Assembly (NCBI GenBank): GCA_019326865.1
Contig: GCA_019326865.1_4101.1
Reading direction: 5' to 3' (one strand)
Length of the DNA stretch: 64,000 nt
Source of the DNA: a phage
A program made the translations under genes and the position numbers. Below, in pieces: positions 47,793 through 58,313 of the stretch. Under the pieces are notes generated by a model. The model did not search any database. It had not been told where the DNA came from and saw only the letters and a program-made list of their open reading frames with translations. How positions within the stretch are numbered: position 1 is the stretch's first letter; each line of letters starts with the position of its first letter.

Positions 47793-50700
47793 TTAAGAAC
47801 CAATATTTATATTGCTTTTAGCTAATGAGTTAACTATTTGAACATTTTCTACAGATGCAGTACTCAAAAATATTTGGTCAGAACGTGATGGAATTTCAAA
47901 TAGAGAACCAAATTTTGAATTTGGATTTTGTGCAACTATCACAATTGTACTAATATGTCTACCCAATTGGGAATGTATATAAGTACACAAATCAGTGTAA
48001 TAGAAACTTTCACCAAAATCCCAGTTATCGACATTAAAATATTCATTTGTTAATGCAATAACATTTTGACGAATTTCATCATCACTCATAGTGCTATTTG
48101 GTAATTTAACAACTTTAAAATCAGCTTTATAGTCTTCAGCAGCACTATTACCAAACAATGGTAGATACTCTGCACTATGCCAAATAATACTGTCACTGAT
48201 GACAGTTTTTTGTTCAACATCTTTGAACATATTTTTCAATTCAACTGATGTAGGTGGTTTTGGGATACTTCCAACTGCATTATTTTTCAACCACACATCA
48301 ACTTCGGTTTTATATGAGTTAGTTAGAACATACATATCAATTAAGTTTGTTCTACTTGGATCAATGCGATTATCATCAGGTGCATAATGCTTCCAATGGA
48401 AATCAATACTTGTACGAGCATTTGTTTTAACTGTGTATTGTGCAGTGACATCTTTATAACCATAGTAATCCAATTTCTGATTCTCATCTGAAATAGTACC
48501 CATATTGTTAATTGTACGATAAAATGCGAGTTCTGGAGTAACAGTGATGGTGTCATCTGAATATGTCAAATTACTAATTAATTGGCCCAAACGATCATTG
48601 TTGTTACCAACGGTCTGTTCGATGAAATAATATTTACCATCATATTTAAAACACACCAAGAATCCAGAACCTTTACTGTACAATCCACTCAATGAGTTAG
48701 AACGAATTGCATTATTTCGTACAAATTCAGTTCTTTTATATGTATTAGGTTCAGCTAATGCTTGTTCCATAGTATAAGACCAAGATGAATCTAGAAGCGT
48801 GAATGTATCATTTGGTAAAGATAGAACTGAAATAGTAAAATCATTATTTTCTTTGAATATCAAAATACCACCATATTTTAATGCATCAGAACCTGACCAT
48901 TCTGGGACAATTTCTTTAAATTGATTTGGCTCTAATGGTATACCATTACTATCTACTTTTCTAGATGTGACTATAATACGAGAGCCATCAAGATATCCAT
49001 TTTCTTGCTGTATTGTATCATAAATTTGAAAATCAATATTACTCGTTAGTCCAGAATTGTTAGTACTTGTGGTGTTCGAAGATAAAATTTCAATCTTATC
49101 ACTTTGAACCGTACCAGTACTAATATCAGTTATTTTTTTGGATGAAACAAAGTAAAATTTCACTTTATCTCCACCGACGAATATATATTCAATACCATTA
49201 GCGTCAAATTCCCAGGTTTCTGCTGTATATCTGACATTTATAACAACCAAAACTTCATGACCATTATACACAATAGTATCATCATTCGTACTTACTTCTA
49301 CAGGAACCCATGCAGTTGTTTCTTTGTCATGAACGATGACAAAATCAGTTTTCTTATCCAACATTGCAGAAATAGATTGAACTTCAACGGAATCAAATCT
49401 AGTTCTATATGGTAATATATAATCAATTGCTTGCATTCTACTTGGCACAGATGTACTTAATACATAAAACCCATTATCTAAGACACTAACAACGCTTGCC
49501 CATACTGTAGATGTAGAGTTAGAAAATTTAATCAAAGTACCTACCTGATACGAGCCATATACGGTTCCAGATGAACCCAAAATTCTACCATATGTATTTG
49601 TAGTATAATTTGAATTATATACAGGCGTCCATGATTGTTGGATTTCAATGCCAATCGTATTGGAAGGGTAAGCTTGATAGCGTTGTATTACTGCATTTTC
49701 ACCAATCAATGGTTGAATATTATCAATAACAATACTGGCATTAGTTTTTGTTGTTGGTAGTAGTAATGATTTATTAAATTTAGTATTTTCTTGATATAAT
49801 GCTCCGTCATCACTAAAAACATCAGTGTTTTGGTATTTCCCAGTAGGATCATTGATGTCAATAAATCGAGACTGACCACTATAAATTCTATTAATAGCTT
49901 TCGACTTAAGTACTGTATTTCCTAAGCTAAGAGGTGCTATATTATAATCTTCGCCATTAACAAAACGGTTTTGTGTATAGTACATTTGTGGTGCACGTGC
50001 TTTAATCTGCTCAATCGTCTCAGCACTTTGTGCACGGTCGGATTCATATTGTAATGAAAAACGCACATCCAACGTACTAGATTCATAGCTTGATTGGGTT
50101 TTAGTTCGATATGTATACTTTACACTTTTATTTTGAATTTCTGATGTTTTAATGTTATACGTTTTACCATTGCTGACGCGATACCACACGCGAAATGTTC
50201 CACGCGGAACAACACCACTTCTAGAATCTGGATATTTAATTGTTATTTGGTCTTTGTCACGAGTTGAAACAGCAAAAATTGTTTTTAATTGACGGTTAAC
50301 CGTATTATATGCAATACTTTCCATAGATGGAACTTTTGTCCATTTCGCACGCACAATGCCGTCTTCATTAATTTCTTGAACCCAAACATCAGTTTCGTTT
50401 ATATTATCAACGTTTACATCTTGTATTCTATTTTCTTCACGAATGTTATATTGATAATCTTGATATGTCAACGTCCCTTGTATAAAATATACAAAAAAAC
50501 CAGTATTTGGTGAACTGAATCCATTACCATCATTTTGATATACAATATATTTTTGTTCTTGTGGTTCTGGGTGACGTTCCTCAACACCAACGGATGTAAT
50601 GTCAGGGTTTACCACTTCAAATGTCATAGATTCACCATTTACTGTTGCAACAAATGGTATACTTGGTGCAGTCATTGGAATCGTATTCATTCTATACAAT

Positions 50701-51254: not shown

Positions 51255-51317
51255 AATTTATTCCTTTAAATCAGTAAAGTACTAGTTCAGTACTGGGAAT
51301 TATATAGAAATATTTAT

Positions 51318-51346
51318 TCAAAAAGAAAAGCACTCAGAAGAGTGCT
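51318..51346 (-). terminator. intrinsic terminator (agcactc-agaa-gagtgct)
   Basis: Perfect 7-bp stem with flanking A/T runs after stop of 51356..51751. Confidence 0.55.
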
Positions 51347-51355
51347 TTTTCTTAA

Positions 51356-51751
51356 TTATAAAGACGATACTGAATAAGTTGCCATTCTATTATTACTTCT
51401 TGCATCAAAGACTATAGAAAGTTCTTCTACTGTATTCAATACAACGTATTGTAATACGATATTCATTTGGTATCCATATTCAATTCTTGAAATTTGTATG
51501 TTTTTAAGATTTAATCGTGGATCTAAGCTAATAATCCTACGTGCATCGGCTTCTAAAAGGTTAATAGTATTATATCCTTCCAATTCAAACAACAAATCCC
51601 ATGCAATAAACCCATAGTCTGCATCAAATGCTCTTTCGCCTTTTTTTGTATTAAAATGATTCATCAAATCCTGTCGAACCAATTCATTATCATACAATGT
51701 TTCAGTTCTACCCACAACTGGTGTAGAGAAACCTTTGAAAACAACTGCCAT
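51356..51751 (-). CDS. baseplate wedge protein (gp25 / GPW-like)
   Basis: ~130 aa; pattern KKGERAFDADYGFIAWDLLFE...PRL parallels gp25 family as recalled. Confidence 0.55.
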   Translation of the reverse strand: MAVVFKGFSTPVVGRTETLYDNELVRQDLMNHFNTKKGERAFDADYGFIAWDLLFELEGYNTINLLEADARRIISLDPRLNLKNIQISRIEYGYQMNIVLQYVVLNTVEELSIVFDARSNNRMATYSVSSL

Positions 51752-51764
51752 TGTCTATTTCCTT

Positions 51765-52253
51765 TTATACGGATTCGACGATACGTGCCATCTTTTCCGC
51801 TCTAGAAGTGGTTTGTTTATACCATGCACTATCACGCAATTCTTTACCAGCAGTTTTATAATCAGCTTTGCCTAATGCGGTCATTGCTTTTTTGAATTTC
51901 AAAACTTTGGTTTTACCCATTTGGAATACCATCATCCACAATACACGCTGTACCTGTACTGGTGCGGTCATACCAAATTGTTCATAAATGGATTTTGCGT
52001 CATTGTACGCGGTTTGAGCATCTTTAATAAGAAGTTGGTCTGCTTGTTCTTCAGTTAAACCATTTTTGAAGTTCTCATTGGGTAGAACTAAATGACCATA
52101 ACCAATAGTATCAAGACCAAGGCTATCTTTATATACCCAAAACTTATCATTTTTAAAATATCCAAGTTTTTTTTGATAAGAAATTGTACCTTCAAACTCT
52201 TTAATTTCTTTAAAAAACTGCTCATCTGTATTTTTAATTTCCCATTTACTCAT
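51765..52253 (-). CDS. T4-type lysozyme (GH24; endolysin candidate)
   Basis: EGTISYQ...DTIGYGHL catalytic region, MVFQMGKT, SAWYKQTTSRAEKMARIVE; matches T4 gene e pattern as recalled. Confidence 0.85.
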   Translation of the reverse strand: MSKWEIKNTDEQFFKEIKEFEGTISYQKKLGYFKNDKFWVYKDSLGLDTIGYGHLVLPNENFKNGLTEEQADQLLIKDAQTAYNDAKSIYEQFGMTAPVQVQRVLWMMVFQMGKTKVLKFKKAMTALGKADYKTAGKELRDSAWYKQTTSRAEKMARIVESV

Positions 52254-52268
52254 AAAGACATCCTCATT

Positions 52269-52276
52269 TTATTTAT
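52269..52276 (-). promoter_or_regulatory. T4-late-type promoter motif TATAAATA (minus strand)
   Basis: Exact TATAAATA 16 nt upstream of lysozyme start. Confidence 0.45.
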
Positions 52277-52289
52277 AGTACTGAAATAT

Positions 52290-54953
52290 TTATTGACATG
52301 CCTCCAAACGTCGAGCCATTAACTCAGCACGGCGGGTCGTTTGACGATACCAAGCCGAATTACGGATTTGTGCTGCTGCTTGTTTATAATTTCCTTTCGC
52401 TAATTCAGATAACATTGTTTTAAATTTAAGAACTCCACCTTTGCCCATTTGAAATACCATTTGACATAGAACTTGTTGTGCCATATAAGGAGTTTTCATG
52501 TTATATGATGCATAAATTGATTTAGCATCATAAATTGCTTTACTACTATCACGAACAAGCATATCATTTGCTTGTTGTTCAGTTATCCCAGAAGAAAAGT
52601 TTTCACCATTCACAATTAAGTGACCGTAACCAATAGTTGGGAAGCCACGACTATCTAAATAACGCCAGAATTTACCATTTCGATAATACCCTTTTGCTTG
52701 CTGATATTGCATAGTACCCTCATATTCCTTTAATTCGGAAATAAATTGAGAATCGCCAGGTACAATTTTCCAATCTATTGCAGTTTTATCTACATTACCG
52801 ACATTATATGTTGGTTGCACAACTGGAGTAGATGATACACCACTTCTCTGTGTTCTTTTTTTACGAGGAACATGTCGGGAGCCACGTTGTGAATAACCAG
52901 TCCCAATTGTTTTAATTTTGGTAGTAACAACCAATTCATCACTATCAACGGATGGTTGCACTACTGCTTGTGGTGAAGATTGATTTGTTGCTTGACCTGC
53001 AATCAATGTTTTATTAGCTGCGTCTGCACCAATACCAGTTTGTGATGCATAAAACAATCCTGGGTCAACTGAACCACTAAAGCCGAGTACGTTAGCTGAC
53101 GTTACACGTATTTCAAATTGCATAACACCATTTGCTTTACCAATGACCTGTCCCTTTTGAACAACATCCTTGTTTAGTAAATTAGTTTGAATATTATAAA
53201 ATATAGATTTATAACCCGATTTATGTTGTATCAAAATTCCACCATTAGTAATTACAACAACACCCCCATCTGGTGCAACAACATCTCCTTTACATTGTAT
53301 TTCCCATCCAGAACGGTCAGTCTTTCCTCCATTTTGTGTTGGTACACCTTTTCCCCAATAACCATATTGACGAATGGTCCCACTACACGGCATATACATA
53401 TGCAAACCCTCATATGTAATGCTATACCCAGTCATTCCAGTATCAGATACCATTAAATCTTGTGTTTGTACTTGTTCAGTTTCGGATGTATAATTCACAA
53501 ATTGAATAGCTTCAGTTTCTTGAGCTTCAGGTATTTCAGGCGTAACATCATTTGCAGGCTGTGGTTGAACAGGTGATTCACTTGAAATCTTCCCCCCACC
53601 TTGTCTCGGTGGTTCAACATAACTACCATGGTTTTTCGCATCAACCCATGCAACAATATCATGAATGTGTTCATTAAGGCCAGTAGATGGTGTTTTAAAG
53701 TTCGGAGCAGTAAATTCCGCTGTTCCGCTGTTTCCTCCACTATTAACTGTCAATGTTTCTCCCCCACCACTAATGATTGCAGATGATGAACCAATTAAAT
53801 TTGCGGAAGTAGAAGCAGATATAGATGCATTCGAACCTGCTGTAATATCAGTACTGCTACCACTTTGCATACGCAAGGACGCAGCAGTGACTAATCGAAG
53901 ATCAGCACCTGAATTGACCACAACTTGTCCACCAACTTTTGCATCAAGAGTTCCAATTAAATCTAATTTAGTATTGGCTCCTACGCGTGCATTAAAATCT
54001 TGACCAGTTTCAATATTATATGAACGTCCAGCAGTGATATTAATATCTTGTCCTGCACGAATATTGATATTCTTATCACAGTGCATATCAATATCCCCTT
54101 CACCAGTAAATTTTATACGGGCGGTTCCATCACGATTAATCAAAAGTACATCCCCTGTTGCTTCTGATAATAATAGTTGTGCACCACTACGTGTTTTTAT
54201 TACAACTCCTTCATTTTTTCGAGAACCAACACGTGTGTCGTTTACTGGGTTATTGAATTGTGTATCTTGATATCCATCTGGGTCTTGATCCCATGTAGGT
54301 GCAGTTAATTCCTCTTCTGTATAACCATCATCAATAATGAAACTATTTCCACGTGGGGATGACATCCCATATACAGTACTCGTTGTTTGACGAGTACTAC
54401 TTCGGTTAGCAAGACCAGCTTCTTCATCATACAAAAGGTTTTGCTTTTTAAGACCAGCAATAATTGGAACGTTTGCATATTTGTCTTGCATATCAGTAGT
54501 GATTGTGTTACGATCATAGTCAGTAACAGGAAGAGGCATATCTGTGCCGCTATAACTACTAATCTCGGTTGCCATACCAGGGACCATAGTATTCATGCGG
54601 TGGTCATATACACAACCAATCCAATACGCTTGAAATGTACGTGCCTGTGCGAAAATCACAACAACAGTGCACCCAACATCAGGCGGCACAGCCCAGAATC
54701 CATATCCTTTAGGATATTGCCCATAAGCATCTGCACTTGGAATACCTGGAGTTTTACCAGCAAAAGGAGACATATAAGATGCCTCAATCCATGATTCTTT
54801 TGAATTTTTATCGCTTTGTGAACCTTGTATCCAAACTTTTAACTTTCCAGATTTAGTTGGATCTCTATTATCCATAACTGTTGCTAATTGTGGATAAGCT
54901 GGGTCAAAACGACCCAACTGTTGTTGTGCATACTTTTTACTTGTATCTGCCAT
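52290..54953 (-). CDS. baseplate central spike / hub protein with C-terminal lysozyme domain (gp5-like)
   Basis: C-terminal lysozyme domain paralogous to 51765..52253; central S/G/T-rich beta-helix-like repeats; M23-peptidase-like segment lacking His. Confidence 0.6.
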   Translation of the reverse strand: MADTSKKYAQQQLGRFDPAYPQLATVMDNRDPTKSGKLKVWIQGSQSDKNSKESWIEASYMSPFAGKTPGIPSADAYGQYPKGYGFWAVPPDVGCTVVVIFAQARTFQAYWIGCVYDHRMNTMVPGMATEISSYSGTDMPLPVTDYDRNTITTDMQDKYANVPIIAGLKKQNLLYDEEAGLANRSSTRQTTSTVYGMSSPRGNSFIIDDGYTEEELTAPTWDQDPDGYQDTQFNNPVNDTRVGSRKNEGVVIKTRSGAQLLLSEATGDVLLINRDGTARIKFTGEGDIDMHCDKNINIRAGQDINITAGRSYNIETGQDFNARVGANTKLDLIGTLDAKVGGQVVVNSGADLRLVTAASLRMQSGSSTDITAGSNASISASTSANLIGSSSAIISGGGETLTVNSGGNSGTAEFTAPNFKTPSTGLNEHIHDIVAWVDAKNHGSYVEPPRQGGGKISSESPVQPQPANDVTPEIPEAQETEAIQFVNYTSETEQVQTQDLMVSDTGMTGYSITYEGLHMYMPCSGTIRQYGYWGKGVPTQNGGKTDRSGWEIQCKGDVVAPDGGVVVITNGGILIQHKSGYKSIFYNIQTNLLNKDVVQKGQVIGKANGVMQFEIRVTSANVLGFSGSVDPGLFYASQTGIGADAANKTLIAGQATNQSSPQAVVQPSVDSDELVVTTKIKTIGTGYSQRGSRHVPRKKRTQRSGVSSTPVVQPTYNVGNVDKTAIDWKIVPGDSQFISELKEYEGTMQYQQAKGYYRNGKFWRYLDSRGFPTIGYGHLIVNGENFSSGITEQQANDMLVRDSSKAIYDAKSIYASYNMKTPYMAQQVLCQMVFQMGKGGVLKFKTMLSELAKGNYKQAAAQIRNSAWYRQTTRRAELMARRLEACQ

Positions 54954-58305: not shown

Positions 58306-58313
58306 TATTTATA
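58306..58313 (-). promoter_or_regulatory. T4-late-type promoter motif TATAAATA (minus strand)
   Basis: Exact TATAAATA ~35 nt upstream of proposed start 58271. Confidence 0.4.

Follow-up and report, generated by a model that had tools for sequence, protein, structure and literature searches.

Two T4-type lysozymes and a degenerate LytM domain at the central spike locus of a RaK2/121Q-type jumbo phage

Spike-borne lysozymes and the layout of the locus

In the myovirus T4 a GH24 lysozyme is built into gp5, the trimeric OB-fold/beta-helix spike found in the virion, and a paralogous free lysozyme is encoded by gene e. The jumbo myoviruses of the RaK2/121Q type share this pairing. For RaK2, the presence of three lysozymes and the unusual build of the spike were described in 2013 (PMC3622015), and the 2017 paper on CBB reported a match to M23 peptidases within the spike and did not confirm the free lysozyme as structural (PMC5259590). 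More recently (2025), the free lysozyme of UE-S1, LysUE1, was purified and found to be muralytic in vitro, to lyse permeabilised E. coli and to reduce CFU (PMC12805682). A lysozyme-like domain and an M23 domain also occur together in gp13 of phi29, a podovirus of Gram-positive hosts, but this is a tail-knob protein without a spike platform, and its M23 domain is catalytically active, as a D,D-endopeptidase (PMC9662197). In T6SS, 'evolved' VgrG proteins likewise carry enzymatic cargo behind the helix. One of these, VgrG-3 of V. cholerae, bears a peptidoglycan-degrading domain.

The window that we analysed, a stretch of 64,000 nucleotides (contig GCA_019326865.1_4101.1 of GenBank assembly GCA_019326865.1), is part of a RaK2/121Q-type jumbo myovirus, a coliphage of the genus Asteriusvirus whose nearest relative is UE-S1 (96% identity to the window). 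Orthologs of its spike and free lysozyme are 96-99% identical in UE-S1, about 95% identical in 121Q and 59-76% identical in other genera. The published counterparts are gp078, gp073 and gp029 of RaK2, CBB_240, CBB_239 and CBB_187, and LysUE1 of UE-S1; these are the same genes as those of the window, with no biological difference. The spike and lysozyme layout is real but already described for these phages, and with the three lysozymes, the spike architecture, the M23 match and the lytic free enzyme all known, the finding as such matters little. What we add is that the M23 domain is dead across the whole family yet conserved, that the duplication behind the lysozymes can be dated and losses of the free gene mapped, and that an HxH motif past the beta-helix is invariant. 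On each of these points (family-wide loss of M23 residues, age of the duplication, losses of the free gene and the invariant HxH) the RaK2, CBB and UE-S1 papers are silent. An earlier note on this DNA had reported a pair of lysozymes, one free-standing and one fused to the spike; that observation is confirmed here, and the interpretation it placed on the pair is partly supported. The genes and intergenic elements concerned are:

52290..54953, minus strand: baseplate central spike gene, 887 aa (open reading frame; four Pfam domains; 87 full-length homolog clusters)
52254..52289, minus strand: spike/free-lysozyme intergenic region, with TATAAATA (52270-52277) and a GAGGA ribosome-binding site (sequence, motif positions)
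51765..52253, minus strand: free-standing GH24 lysozyme, 162 aa (open reading frame; PF00959)
51356..51751, minus strand: gp25-like baseplate wedge gene, conserved as the next gene downstream (Pfam GPW_gp25, 35.5 bits, GA 27.2; PHROG 43)
51325..51350, both strands: G+C hairpin followed by a T-run, terminator-like in either direction (10-11 bp stem; by consensus match only)

The order spike, free lysozyme, gp25 is common to Asteriusvirus, Alcyoneusvirus, Mimasvirus, Eneladusvirus and the Munch-like phages, and it recurs in metagenomic lineages with only 37-43% spike identity; the gp25-like gene holds an identical position in all relatives examined. A tblastn search of the window with the free and spike lysozyme domains found no copy beyond those two.

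The spike and its degenerate LytM domain

The 887-aa protein is the trimeric central spike of the baseplate, and its N-terminal half is VgrG/gp5-like. Its parts follow one another in the order OB fold, beta-helix, HxH, linker, dead LytM, linker and GH24 lysozyme:

54606..54887, minus strand: gp5/VgrG-type OB-fold domain, residues 23-116 (Pfam Phage_base_V, PF04717, 29.8 bits, GA 23.8)
53709..54206, minus strand: triple beta-helix region, residues about 250-415 (Pfam DUF2345, PF10106, 34.6 bits, GA 30.7, residues 278-329)
53661..53669, minus strand: H429-I-H431 (HxH), directly after the beta-helix (translation checked)
53424..53621, minus strand: linker 1, residues 445-510, low complexity, Pro/Glu/Gln-rich (sequence; AF2)
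52974..53423, minus strand: degenerate, non-catalytic LytM/M23-fold domain, residues 511-660 (motif residues lost; LytM beta-sheet fold)
52773..52973, minus strand: linker 2, residues 661-727, with the motif IGTGYSQRGS and then the basic run RHVPRKKRTQR (alignment; AF2)
52293..52772, minus strand: C-terminal GH24 T4-type lysozyme domain, residues 728-887 (PF00959)

An OB fold followed by a beta-helix, a baseplate setting (the neighbouring genes are gp53-like, gp25-like and gp6-like) and the detection of orthologs in virions by published mass spectrometry (CBB_240, PMC5259590; phAPEC6 gp241, PMC7247149) mark this protein as a central spike of the gp5/VgrG type. The OB-fold domain finds the T6SS VgrG 9jg8_G by phmmer (E 3.9e-6), and the beta-helix matches VgrG1 (4uhv, E 4.8e-4) and is modelled with AF2 pLDDT values of 80-94. 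Although the best PDB matches of the N-terminal half are thus VgrG proteins, the spike differs from these in its gp25/gp6/gp53 phage baseplate context and in having no fused gp27-like N-terminal module. It also differs from T4 gp5, in which the order is OB, lysozyme, beta-helix; here the order is OB, beta-helix, LytM, lysozyme, as noted before (PMC3622015, PMC5259590), such that the lysozyme lies C-terminal of both the beta-helix and the LytM domain. T4 further has neither the dead LytM domain, nor a free paralog beside the spike gene in the baseplate operon, nor a third paralog with TM and LysM segments. In distant homologs of the spike the platform is kept and the cargo exchanged, either for a GH19-like domain or for a trypsin together with an intact M23.

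Every spike and lysozyme domain is under purifying selection (omega 0.01-0.05), the OB fold having a dN/dS of 0.009 (vs 121Q). Linker 1 (dN/dS 0.13) is, jointly with the apex region, the least constrained part, and at its end AF2 pLDDT falls below 50 (residues 498-511). H429 and H431 are themselves invariant among 71 aligned spikes that are 37-91% identical, and no Pfam profile matches residues 380-480 at E<=10. We infer that these two histidines are a candidate metal-binding apex of the spike, a reading suggested by the spikes P2 gpV and phi92 gp138. In linker 2 pLDDT again falls below 50 (residues 699-717). V675 and G691 of this linker are invariant and I683, S692 and P696 are more than 90% conserved; one might speculate that its motif serves as a cleavage or docking site.

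The segment between the linkers has the M23/LytM beta-sheet fold. The Peptidase_M23 profile scores below its GA of 28.7 (20.2 bits with the whole protein, 24.6 bits with the isolated segment), and the match ends at position 73 of 96, ahead of the HxH region. The H(x)nD zinc motif (as defined in PMC9662197) is replaced by GWEIQ, with Trp550, invariant in 71 orthologs, at the position of the histidine and, in the window, Gln where the Asp is expected. Where HxHFE would be expected the sequence reads VMQFEIR, and YNIQ replaces Y-x-H-L, which holds the upstream catalytic histidine (the equivalent of LytM His260). The earlier note was therefore right that zinc-binding histidines are missing, with MQFEIR at the HxH position, and the upstream catalytic histidine is gone as well. 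None of the orthologs has a histidine at the HxH or upstream catalytic positions, PHLHLE being found in the distant P0096. Despite the lost catalytic residues the domain has a dN/dS of 0.048. Judged from these residues, the LytM domain is, unlike the M23 domain of phi29 gp13, catalytically dead in every ortholog, yet it is strongly conserved.

Such a domain would probably be a peptidoglycan- or protein-binding module. The degenerate LytM factors EnvC, NlpD and DipM, which are likewise M23 folds that lack catalysis and which regulate peptidoglycan hydrolases, belong to the bacterial divisome, whereas this domain belongs to a phage virion protein. By analogy with them, the LytM domain, kept in about 87 homolog clusters (omega about 0.05), might gate the spike's own lysozyme until penetration, or might dock onto and de-repress host periplasmic amidases at the site of entry. 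We offer this as an outside chance. In a fold search active M23 enzymes score nearly as high (StM23 13.7, Csd3 13.1), and the activator subgroup is not singled out. If the amidase-docking version were true, the phage would use host autolysins to open the wall. We also considered the free lysozyme as an obligate partner of the LytM domain and rejected this, because lineages without the free gene still have the LytM domain. Our literature search turned up no solved RaK2-like baseplate or spike, and no account of a phage spike with a dead LytM domain.

Paralogy and age of the two lysozymes

Both lysozymes have the T4-lysozyme fold and match PF00959 (free copy 37.8 bits, spike 45.1 bits; GA 22.3). 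The catalytic residues Glu11, Asp20 and Thr26 of T4 lysozyme, whose reference sequence we validated against wild-type PDB entries, correspond to E21, D43 and T49 in the free copy and to E745, D767 and T773 in the spike. Neither the catalytic Glu nor the catalytic Asp varies across an alignment of 20 sequences from all three paralog classes. The Glu/Asp/Thr set and the fold are shared with T4 lysozyme, from which the two lysozymes differ by about 14 extra residues inserted between the Glu and the Asp. The free protein has no hydrophobic segment (max KD19 0.79), a pI of 9.19 and a dN/dS of 0.048, and is 98.8% identical to LysUE1. It is predicted to be a soluble, basic and catalytically competent muramidase.

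The two domains are clear paralogs, as the earlier note had proposed: they are about 52-53% identical (E 5e-59), as against 34% identity to the phage's third lysozyme and about 29% to T4 lysozyme, and each is the other's closest paralog in the genome. The note had further read them as the product of a recent tandem duplication in this phage, by which the tail lysozyme gave rise to a soluble endolysin or vice versa. Adjacent genes that are 53% identical and closest paralogs would be expected on such a reading. Nevertheless, we regard it as highly improbable, and 'recent' does not survive comparison with the relatives. The pair and its position before gp25 are kept across at least five genera and in the lineages at 37-43% spike identity, and the copies have diverged by 47% at the amino-acid level, compared with 4% between the window and its 121Q orthologs. 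In neighbour-joining trees (about 150 columns, deeper nodes unsupported) the spike lysozymes form a clade (90% bootstrap) and the free copies a separate clade that mirrors the phage tree, with the free and spike copies of one genome sisters in none. Identity between free copies of different lineages exceeds that between free and spike copies within a genome: the free copies of two distant lineages are 43% and 49% identical to the free copy of the window, and 39% and 40% identical to their own spike domains. There is no sign of gene conversion having erased within-genome similarity. Since free copies cluster with one another and in no case with the spike of the same genome, the duplication is older than the sampled family as a whole.

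Alternatively, the spike domain and the free gene could each have been acquired on its own from among related free-standing endolysins of phages or prophages. Enterobacterial prophage endolysins of 147-150 aa are 46-52% identical to the free copy, which is about as close as the spike domain, and they too carry the insertion between Glu and Asp. In a 42-sequence tree, however, these endolysins form a clade of their own (88%) as an outgroup, and the free and spike copies group together, at a moderate 46-69% bootstrap. By this comparison the two domains are closer to each other than to the 150-aa prophage endolysins, their nearest relatives from outside, and the outcome that the earlier note had named as fatal to its reading does not arise. 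Moreover, a tandem event predicts that the genes lie side by side, which two captures would produce only by chance. A larger tree that included spike domains from deep lineages lost all backbone support and gave no direction of duplication; the poor backbone leaves some room for separate capture, which we nevertheless consider unlikely. A single duplication is the best account of the pair, as far as the alignments and trees go.

Presence and absence of the free gene were therefore mapped onto a lineage tree of the N-terminal part of the spike. Both branches of the deepest split in this tree include the free copy, and its absences are nested inside lineages that have it; the ancestor shared by all sampled spikes with this architecture therefore already had a free lysozyme. 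With free and fused forms on both sides of the deepest split, the direction, from free to fused or the reverse, cannot be read. The free gene has been lost in at least two lineages that retain the rest of the baseplate module.

The role of the free lysozyme

In calling the free copy a soluble endolysin, the earlier note was right as to solubility, and the ortholog is muralytic (PMC12805682); it is the word endolysin that is in doubt. The predicted endolysin of the group (PMC5259590) is another lysozyme, the third paralog, which combines a TM segment, LysM and a lysozyme domain; in 121Q it is gp532, located upstream of the window and near a spanin. The free gene sits between the spike gene and gp25 in the baseplate operon rather than in a lysis cassette. 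No holin or spanin gene, for which the earlier note had suggested looking, adjoins it; in record coordinates the Rz-like spanin (gp511) and the LysM-lysozyme of 121Q are about 60-70 kb from the free lysozyme, upstream of the start of the window.

The hairpin past gp25 is likely to be a terminator closing a transcription unit of spike, lysozyme and gp25. Within the intergenic region (C)AATAAATA overlaps the spike stop codon and is conserved across genera, and the free lysozyme of RaK2, which is displaced, has its own TATAAATA. This positional pattern and the conservation across genera are suggestive of a late promoter, although the window has no excess of TATAAATA (5 occurrences vs 10.4 expected); sigma-70-like sites in the window are at chance level.

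One possibility, which we hold to be real although the less probable one, is that the free lysozyme serves as an enzyme present in few copies in the virion or baseplate, or as a baseplate assembly factor, made with the hub proteins and aiding wall penetration at infection rather than lysis. It occupies an invariant slot between spike and gp25 across deep divergence, would be co-transcribed with structural genes up to the terminator, and has no holin or spanin neighbour, while a separate dedicated endolysin candidate exists (PMC5259590). Deep conservation in a baseplate operon, away from holin and spanin, would be more in keeping with a part in structure or assembly than with lysis. It is also the case that lysis by a SAR endolysin and a pinholin would leave little use for a cytoplasmic lysozyme, which counts against a lysis role. 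On the other side, the virion proteomes of CBB (PMC5259590) and phAPEC6 (PMC7247149) contain the three-copy spike and not the free lysozyme, and in the Rak2-like phages only the gp25-like and spike proteins have been confirmed as structural (PMC5259590). For an 18-kDa protein such absence is weak negative evidence, and gp25 is likewise missing from the phAPEC6 list. In RaK2 four ORFs separate the spike gene from that of the free lysozyme. Finally, the free gene has been lost where the baseplate module stays, and it is therefore dispensable for baseplate assembly; at least two losses point to an accessory rather than a core function.

We therefore favour, with a probability of roughly 0.6, an account in which the central spike carries a dead LytM domain and a tethered lysozyme of the active type, and the ancient free paralog is an accessory lysis enzyme, with all of the in vivo roles inferred. 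Upon tail contraction the spike would cross the outer membrane, as in T4 gp5, and its cargo, sitting past the helix on two flexible linkers, would allow the tethered lysozyme to cut peptidoglycan locally. The free lysozyme would be expressed late, together with the baseplate genes and perhaps from a late promoter of its own, and is apparently absent from virions. It would most likely be an accessory cytoplasmic enzyme that reaches the wall after the membrane is breached and works alongside the separate TM and LysM lysozyme, the predicted primary endolysin. For this family of phages, the free lysozymes form an ortholog group of ancient origin that is tied to the slot between spike and gp25, and the LytM domain, dead but conserved, raises the testable question of what role a non-enzymatic LytM domain plays on a phage spike.

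The spike-lysozyme locus and its two paralogs

We find that the minus strand encodes, side by side, a baseplate central spike and a free-standing GH24 lysozyme, just as the earlier note described the pair:

52290-54953, minus strand: spike ORF, 887 aa
51765-52253, minus strand: free lysozyme ORF, 162 aa

The nearest relative of the region is Escherichia phage UE-S1 (96% identity); identity to 121Q and PBECO4 (genus Asteriusvirus) is 88%, and Klebsiella and Salmonella jumbo phages match more weakly. The window's first base falls within the tail-sheath gene, and the minus-strand order around the pair is 262-aa virion protein, gp53-like, 749-aa virion protein, spike, free lysozyme, gp25-like, probable hairpin terminator and gp6-like. 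The spike and lysozyme genes are already annotated in dozens of GenBank records; at this locus the Salmonella phage SD-1_S14 annotation gives a truncated, 132-aa version. We note that accessory or mobile insertions vary among relatives at two places: 121Q carries an HNH endonuclease gene (gene 584; locus L001, 11221-11985) that separates the gp6-like gene from the gp25-like one, which in the window are just 100 nt apart with a bidirectional hairpin in the interval (51255-51355), and in RaK2 four small ORFs (locus L002, 3391-4884) separate spike from free lysozyme.

The free protein aligns without gaps to spike residues 728-886 at 53% identity (BLASTP, E 5e-59), both proteins carry the three motif pairs previously quoted for them, and Pfam Phage_lysozyme scores above threshold in each; these are the only lysozyme copies within the window. 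The window's free copy is 59-96% identical to free orthologs, 52% to its own spike domain, 34% to a third paralog encoded elsewhere in these genomes and 29% to T4 lysozyme (T4L). Chromosomal lysozymes of 147-150 aa from Pantoea, Erwinia, Serratia and Yersinia form one clade (88% support), show 46-52% identity with the free copy and carry the same insert as the phage lysozymes, which separates catalytic Glu from catalytic Asp. Relative to this clade the free and spike copies cluster together (46-69% support), so the outcome that the earlier note named as refuting a duplication, two domains no closer to each other than to unrelated GH24 lysozymes, did not arise. One chromosomal relative lies in a siphovirus-type prophage, where a tail-tip gene and then an ORF of 84 aa directly precede it, an arrangement that puts it in an endolysin position; the ancestral state of the subfamily was therefore probably a free-standing endolysin.

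An ancestral free gene, lost more than once

The earlier note had read the pair as a recent tandem duplication that produced a soluble endolysin from the tail lysozyme, or the reverse. Spike, free lysozyme and gp25 follow one another in 121Q, EJP2, Munch, XbC2, CBB, GAP32 and Yersinia fHe-Yen9-03, and RaK2 shows this order too, past the ORFs inserted after its spike. In bootstrapped neighbour-joining trees the free copies and the spike domains form separate groups, each paralleling the phage phylogeny (90% support for the spike-domain clade), and in no genome of these trees are its own two copies sisters. Even metagenomic lineages with spikes just 37-43% identical to that of the window encode a lysozyme of 160-170 aa at this position, and such free copies share more identity with the window's free copy (43%, 49%) than with the spike domain of their own genome (39%, 40%). 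Three lineages have gp25 directly after the spike, without a free lysozyme. When presence and absence were mapped on a lineage tree of the spike N-terminal part, the free gene fell on either side of the deepest split and the absences were nested: the spike homolog P0076 branches with P0077 as its sister (79%), and P0080 and P0082 lie within the clade containing P0086 (93-97%). The free gene is therefore ancestral and has been lost at least twice, which, together with the separate clades and the closer resemblance of free copies across lineages, refutes a recent date. Presence and absence give no direction for the duplication, nor does the deep lysozyme tree, whose backbone lacks support.

The 36-nt gap 5' of the free gene holds TATAAATA, the T4 late-promoter consensus, and a GAGGA ribosome-binding site. 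A related (C)AATAAATA that overlaps the stop codon of the spike is kept in every genus, and in RaK2, where the free gene is displaced, that gene comes with a separate TATAAATA. Three of the five window copies lie just 5' of minus-strand structural-gene starts:

47804-47811, minus strand: TATAAATA
52270-52277, minus strand: TATAAATA
58306-58313, minus strand: TATAAATA

Since the window as a whole holds fewer copies of TATAAATA than expected (5 against 10.4), the motif's reading as a late promoter of the free gene is only suggestive. A gp55-like late sigma factor is encoded in the phage group (121Q gp591), and the probable hairpin terminator lies 3' of the gp25 gene.

A VgrG-like spike with a degenerate LytM domain

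The spike carries the following features:

Residues 23-116: Phage_base_V, OB fold (Pfam above threshold)
Residues 278-329: DUF2345, beta-helix (Pfam above threshold)
Residues 429-431 (53661-53669, minus strand): H429-I-H431 (HxH), just past the beta-helix
Residues 683-705 (52839-52907, minus strand): linker motif IGTGYSQRGS, then basic run RHVPRKKRTQR

Its N-terminal half matches T6SS VgrG in PDB (9jg8_G, E 3.9e-6; 4uhv, E 4.8e-4). Across 71 spikes of 37-91% identity H429 and H431 never vary, unlike the residues around them, and no Pfam model matched the region. The P2 gpV and phi92 gp138 spikes have an iron-binding HxH apex, and by analogy H429-x-H431 may be a metal-binding spike tip.

Pfam Peptidase_M23 falls below its threshold of 28.7 bits on spike residues 549-608, both in the whole protein (20.2 bits) and with the segment alone (24.6 bits). 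Both family-defining motifs, H(x)nD and HxH (PMC9662197), are absent from the segment, bearing out the suggestion that it is M23-like without the zinc-binding histidines. It contains GWEIQ, whose W550 does not vary among 71 orthologs, and VMQFEIR; YNIQ stands at the mid-domain catalytic-histidine position, and at the position of the second histidine orthologs differ freely in residue. The distant homolog P0096 retains HWGID...PHLHLE. The segment is a degenerate LytM fold, with an omega of 0.048. Fold-search matches include StM23 (13.7), V. cholerae EnvC (13.5), Csd3 (13.1) and DipM (13.1) and, lower in the list, LytM, lysostaphin, SpoIIQ (12.0) and phi29 gp13 (10.5); because active M23 enzymes score nearly as high as EnvC, the fold search alone does not assign the domain to the activator subgroup. 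Degenerate LytM folds usually act via protein-protein interactions, EnvC and NlpD activating amidases (PMC9662197). The domain is retained in lineages that lost the free lysozyme gene, which rules out the free lysozyme as its obligate partner.

The LytM domain lies between two linkers of low prediction confidence. The motif in the second is conserved as IG(S/T)GY(S/A)QRGS, the rest of the LytM-lysozyme linker being disordered, and with its basic run may serve for maturation cleavage or for docking; cleavage during assembly is known from T4 gp5. Homologs below about 35% identity (P0088-P0115) have just the OB-fold and beta-helix platform in common with the spike; their C-terminal cargo is different, namely GH19 chitinase-like (P0106), trypsin-like with an intact M23 (P0096) and PF22178. 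The spike thus looks, like an evolved VgrG, to be a modular cargo platform with exchangeable C-terminal domains.

Proposed roles of the three lysozymes

Against a validated T4L reference, E11, D20 and T26 align with E21, D43 and T49 of the free copy and with E745, D767 and T773 of the spike; the catalytic Glu and Asp are invariant in all three paralog classes. Omega against 121Q (0.048 and 0.052 for the two lysozymes) indicates strong purifying selection. The free copy is 98.8% identical to its UE-S1 ortholog, and the cloning primer for the latter, LysUE1, matches the first 21 nt of the window's gene. Purified LysUE1 lysed permeabilised E. coli; killing reached 2 log with the enzyme by itself and 4 log when EDTA was present (PMC12805682). 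Elsewhere in the group Asp replaces the T26-equivalent Thr in the spike domains of P0026 (Munch-like) and P0038, Ile replaces it in P0077 and P0079, and the P0087 domain appears degenerate. The free lysozyme adjoins the spike in 2/2 such lineages with examined loci (P0026, as Munch itself, and P0077; P0038, P0079 and P0087 are outside the count). There are hints of a division of labour between the copies where the spike domain is altered.

Each genome of the group has three lysozyme-matching places. The third paralog in 121Q, gp532 (308 aa; locus L010, 9192-10118), comprises a hydrophobic N-terminus (residues 13-31, KD19 1.86), LysM and a GH24 lysozyme, and lies ~8 kb upstream of the window start and ~9 kb from the Rz-like spanin gp511 (L010, 339-713), the two together spanning 8-18 kb upstream; no holin is annotated between them in 121Q. 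Its homolog CBB_187 is a predicted endolysin, toxic when induced (CBB paper, 2017). No hydrophobic segment was found in the free lysozyme.

We favour, with a probability of about 0.6, a joint reading in which the spike would bring a tethered, active GH24 lysozyme to peptidoglycan during penetration, sharing this function with T4 gp5 but differing in its VgrG-like C-terminal cargo; the dead LytM domain would be a binding or regulatory module, and the free paralog a late, soluble, non-virion muramidase, accessory in lysis to the TM and LysM endolysin. The main rival, in which the free enzyme acts in the baseplate at low copy number, would account for the conserved operon position of its gene, but the gene has been lost repeatedly and virion proteomics is negative for its product: among CBB_238/239/240 just the gp25-like protein and the spike are confirmed virion components in Rak2-like phages (CBB paper), and in phAPEC6 virion mass spectrometry the list passes from the 95.9-kDa spike gp241 straight to gp244, gp242 being absent. 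We consider such a role less likely.

The RaK2 (2013) and CBB (2017) papers already reported the lysozyme pair and its third paralog, as well as the M23 hit and the unusual order of the spike's domains; the activity of the free enzyme was published with UE-S1 (2025; PMC12805682). Among the papers searched, none describes a solved RaK2-like spike or a dead LytM domain on a phage spike. New here are a LytM domain that is dead family-wide yet strongly constrained, and structurally most similar to EnvC; the dating of the free gene and the mapping of its losses; and the invariant HxH after the beta-helix. Taken together, this is an ordinary feature that earlier work had described, with one point of modest interest.
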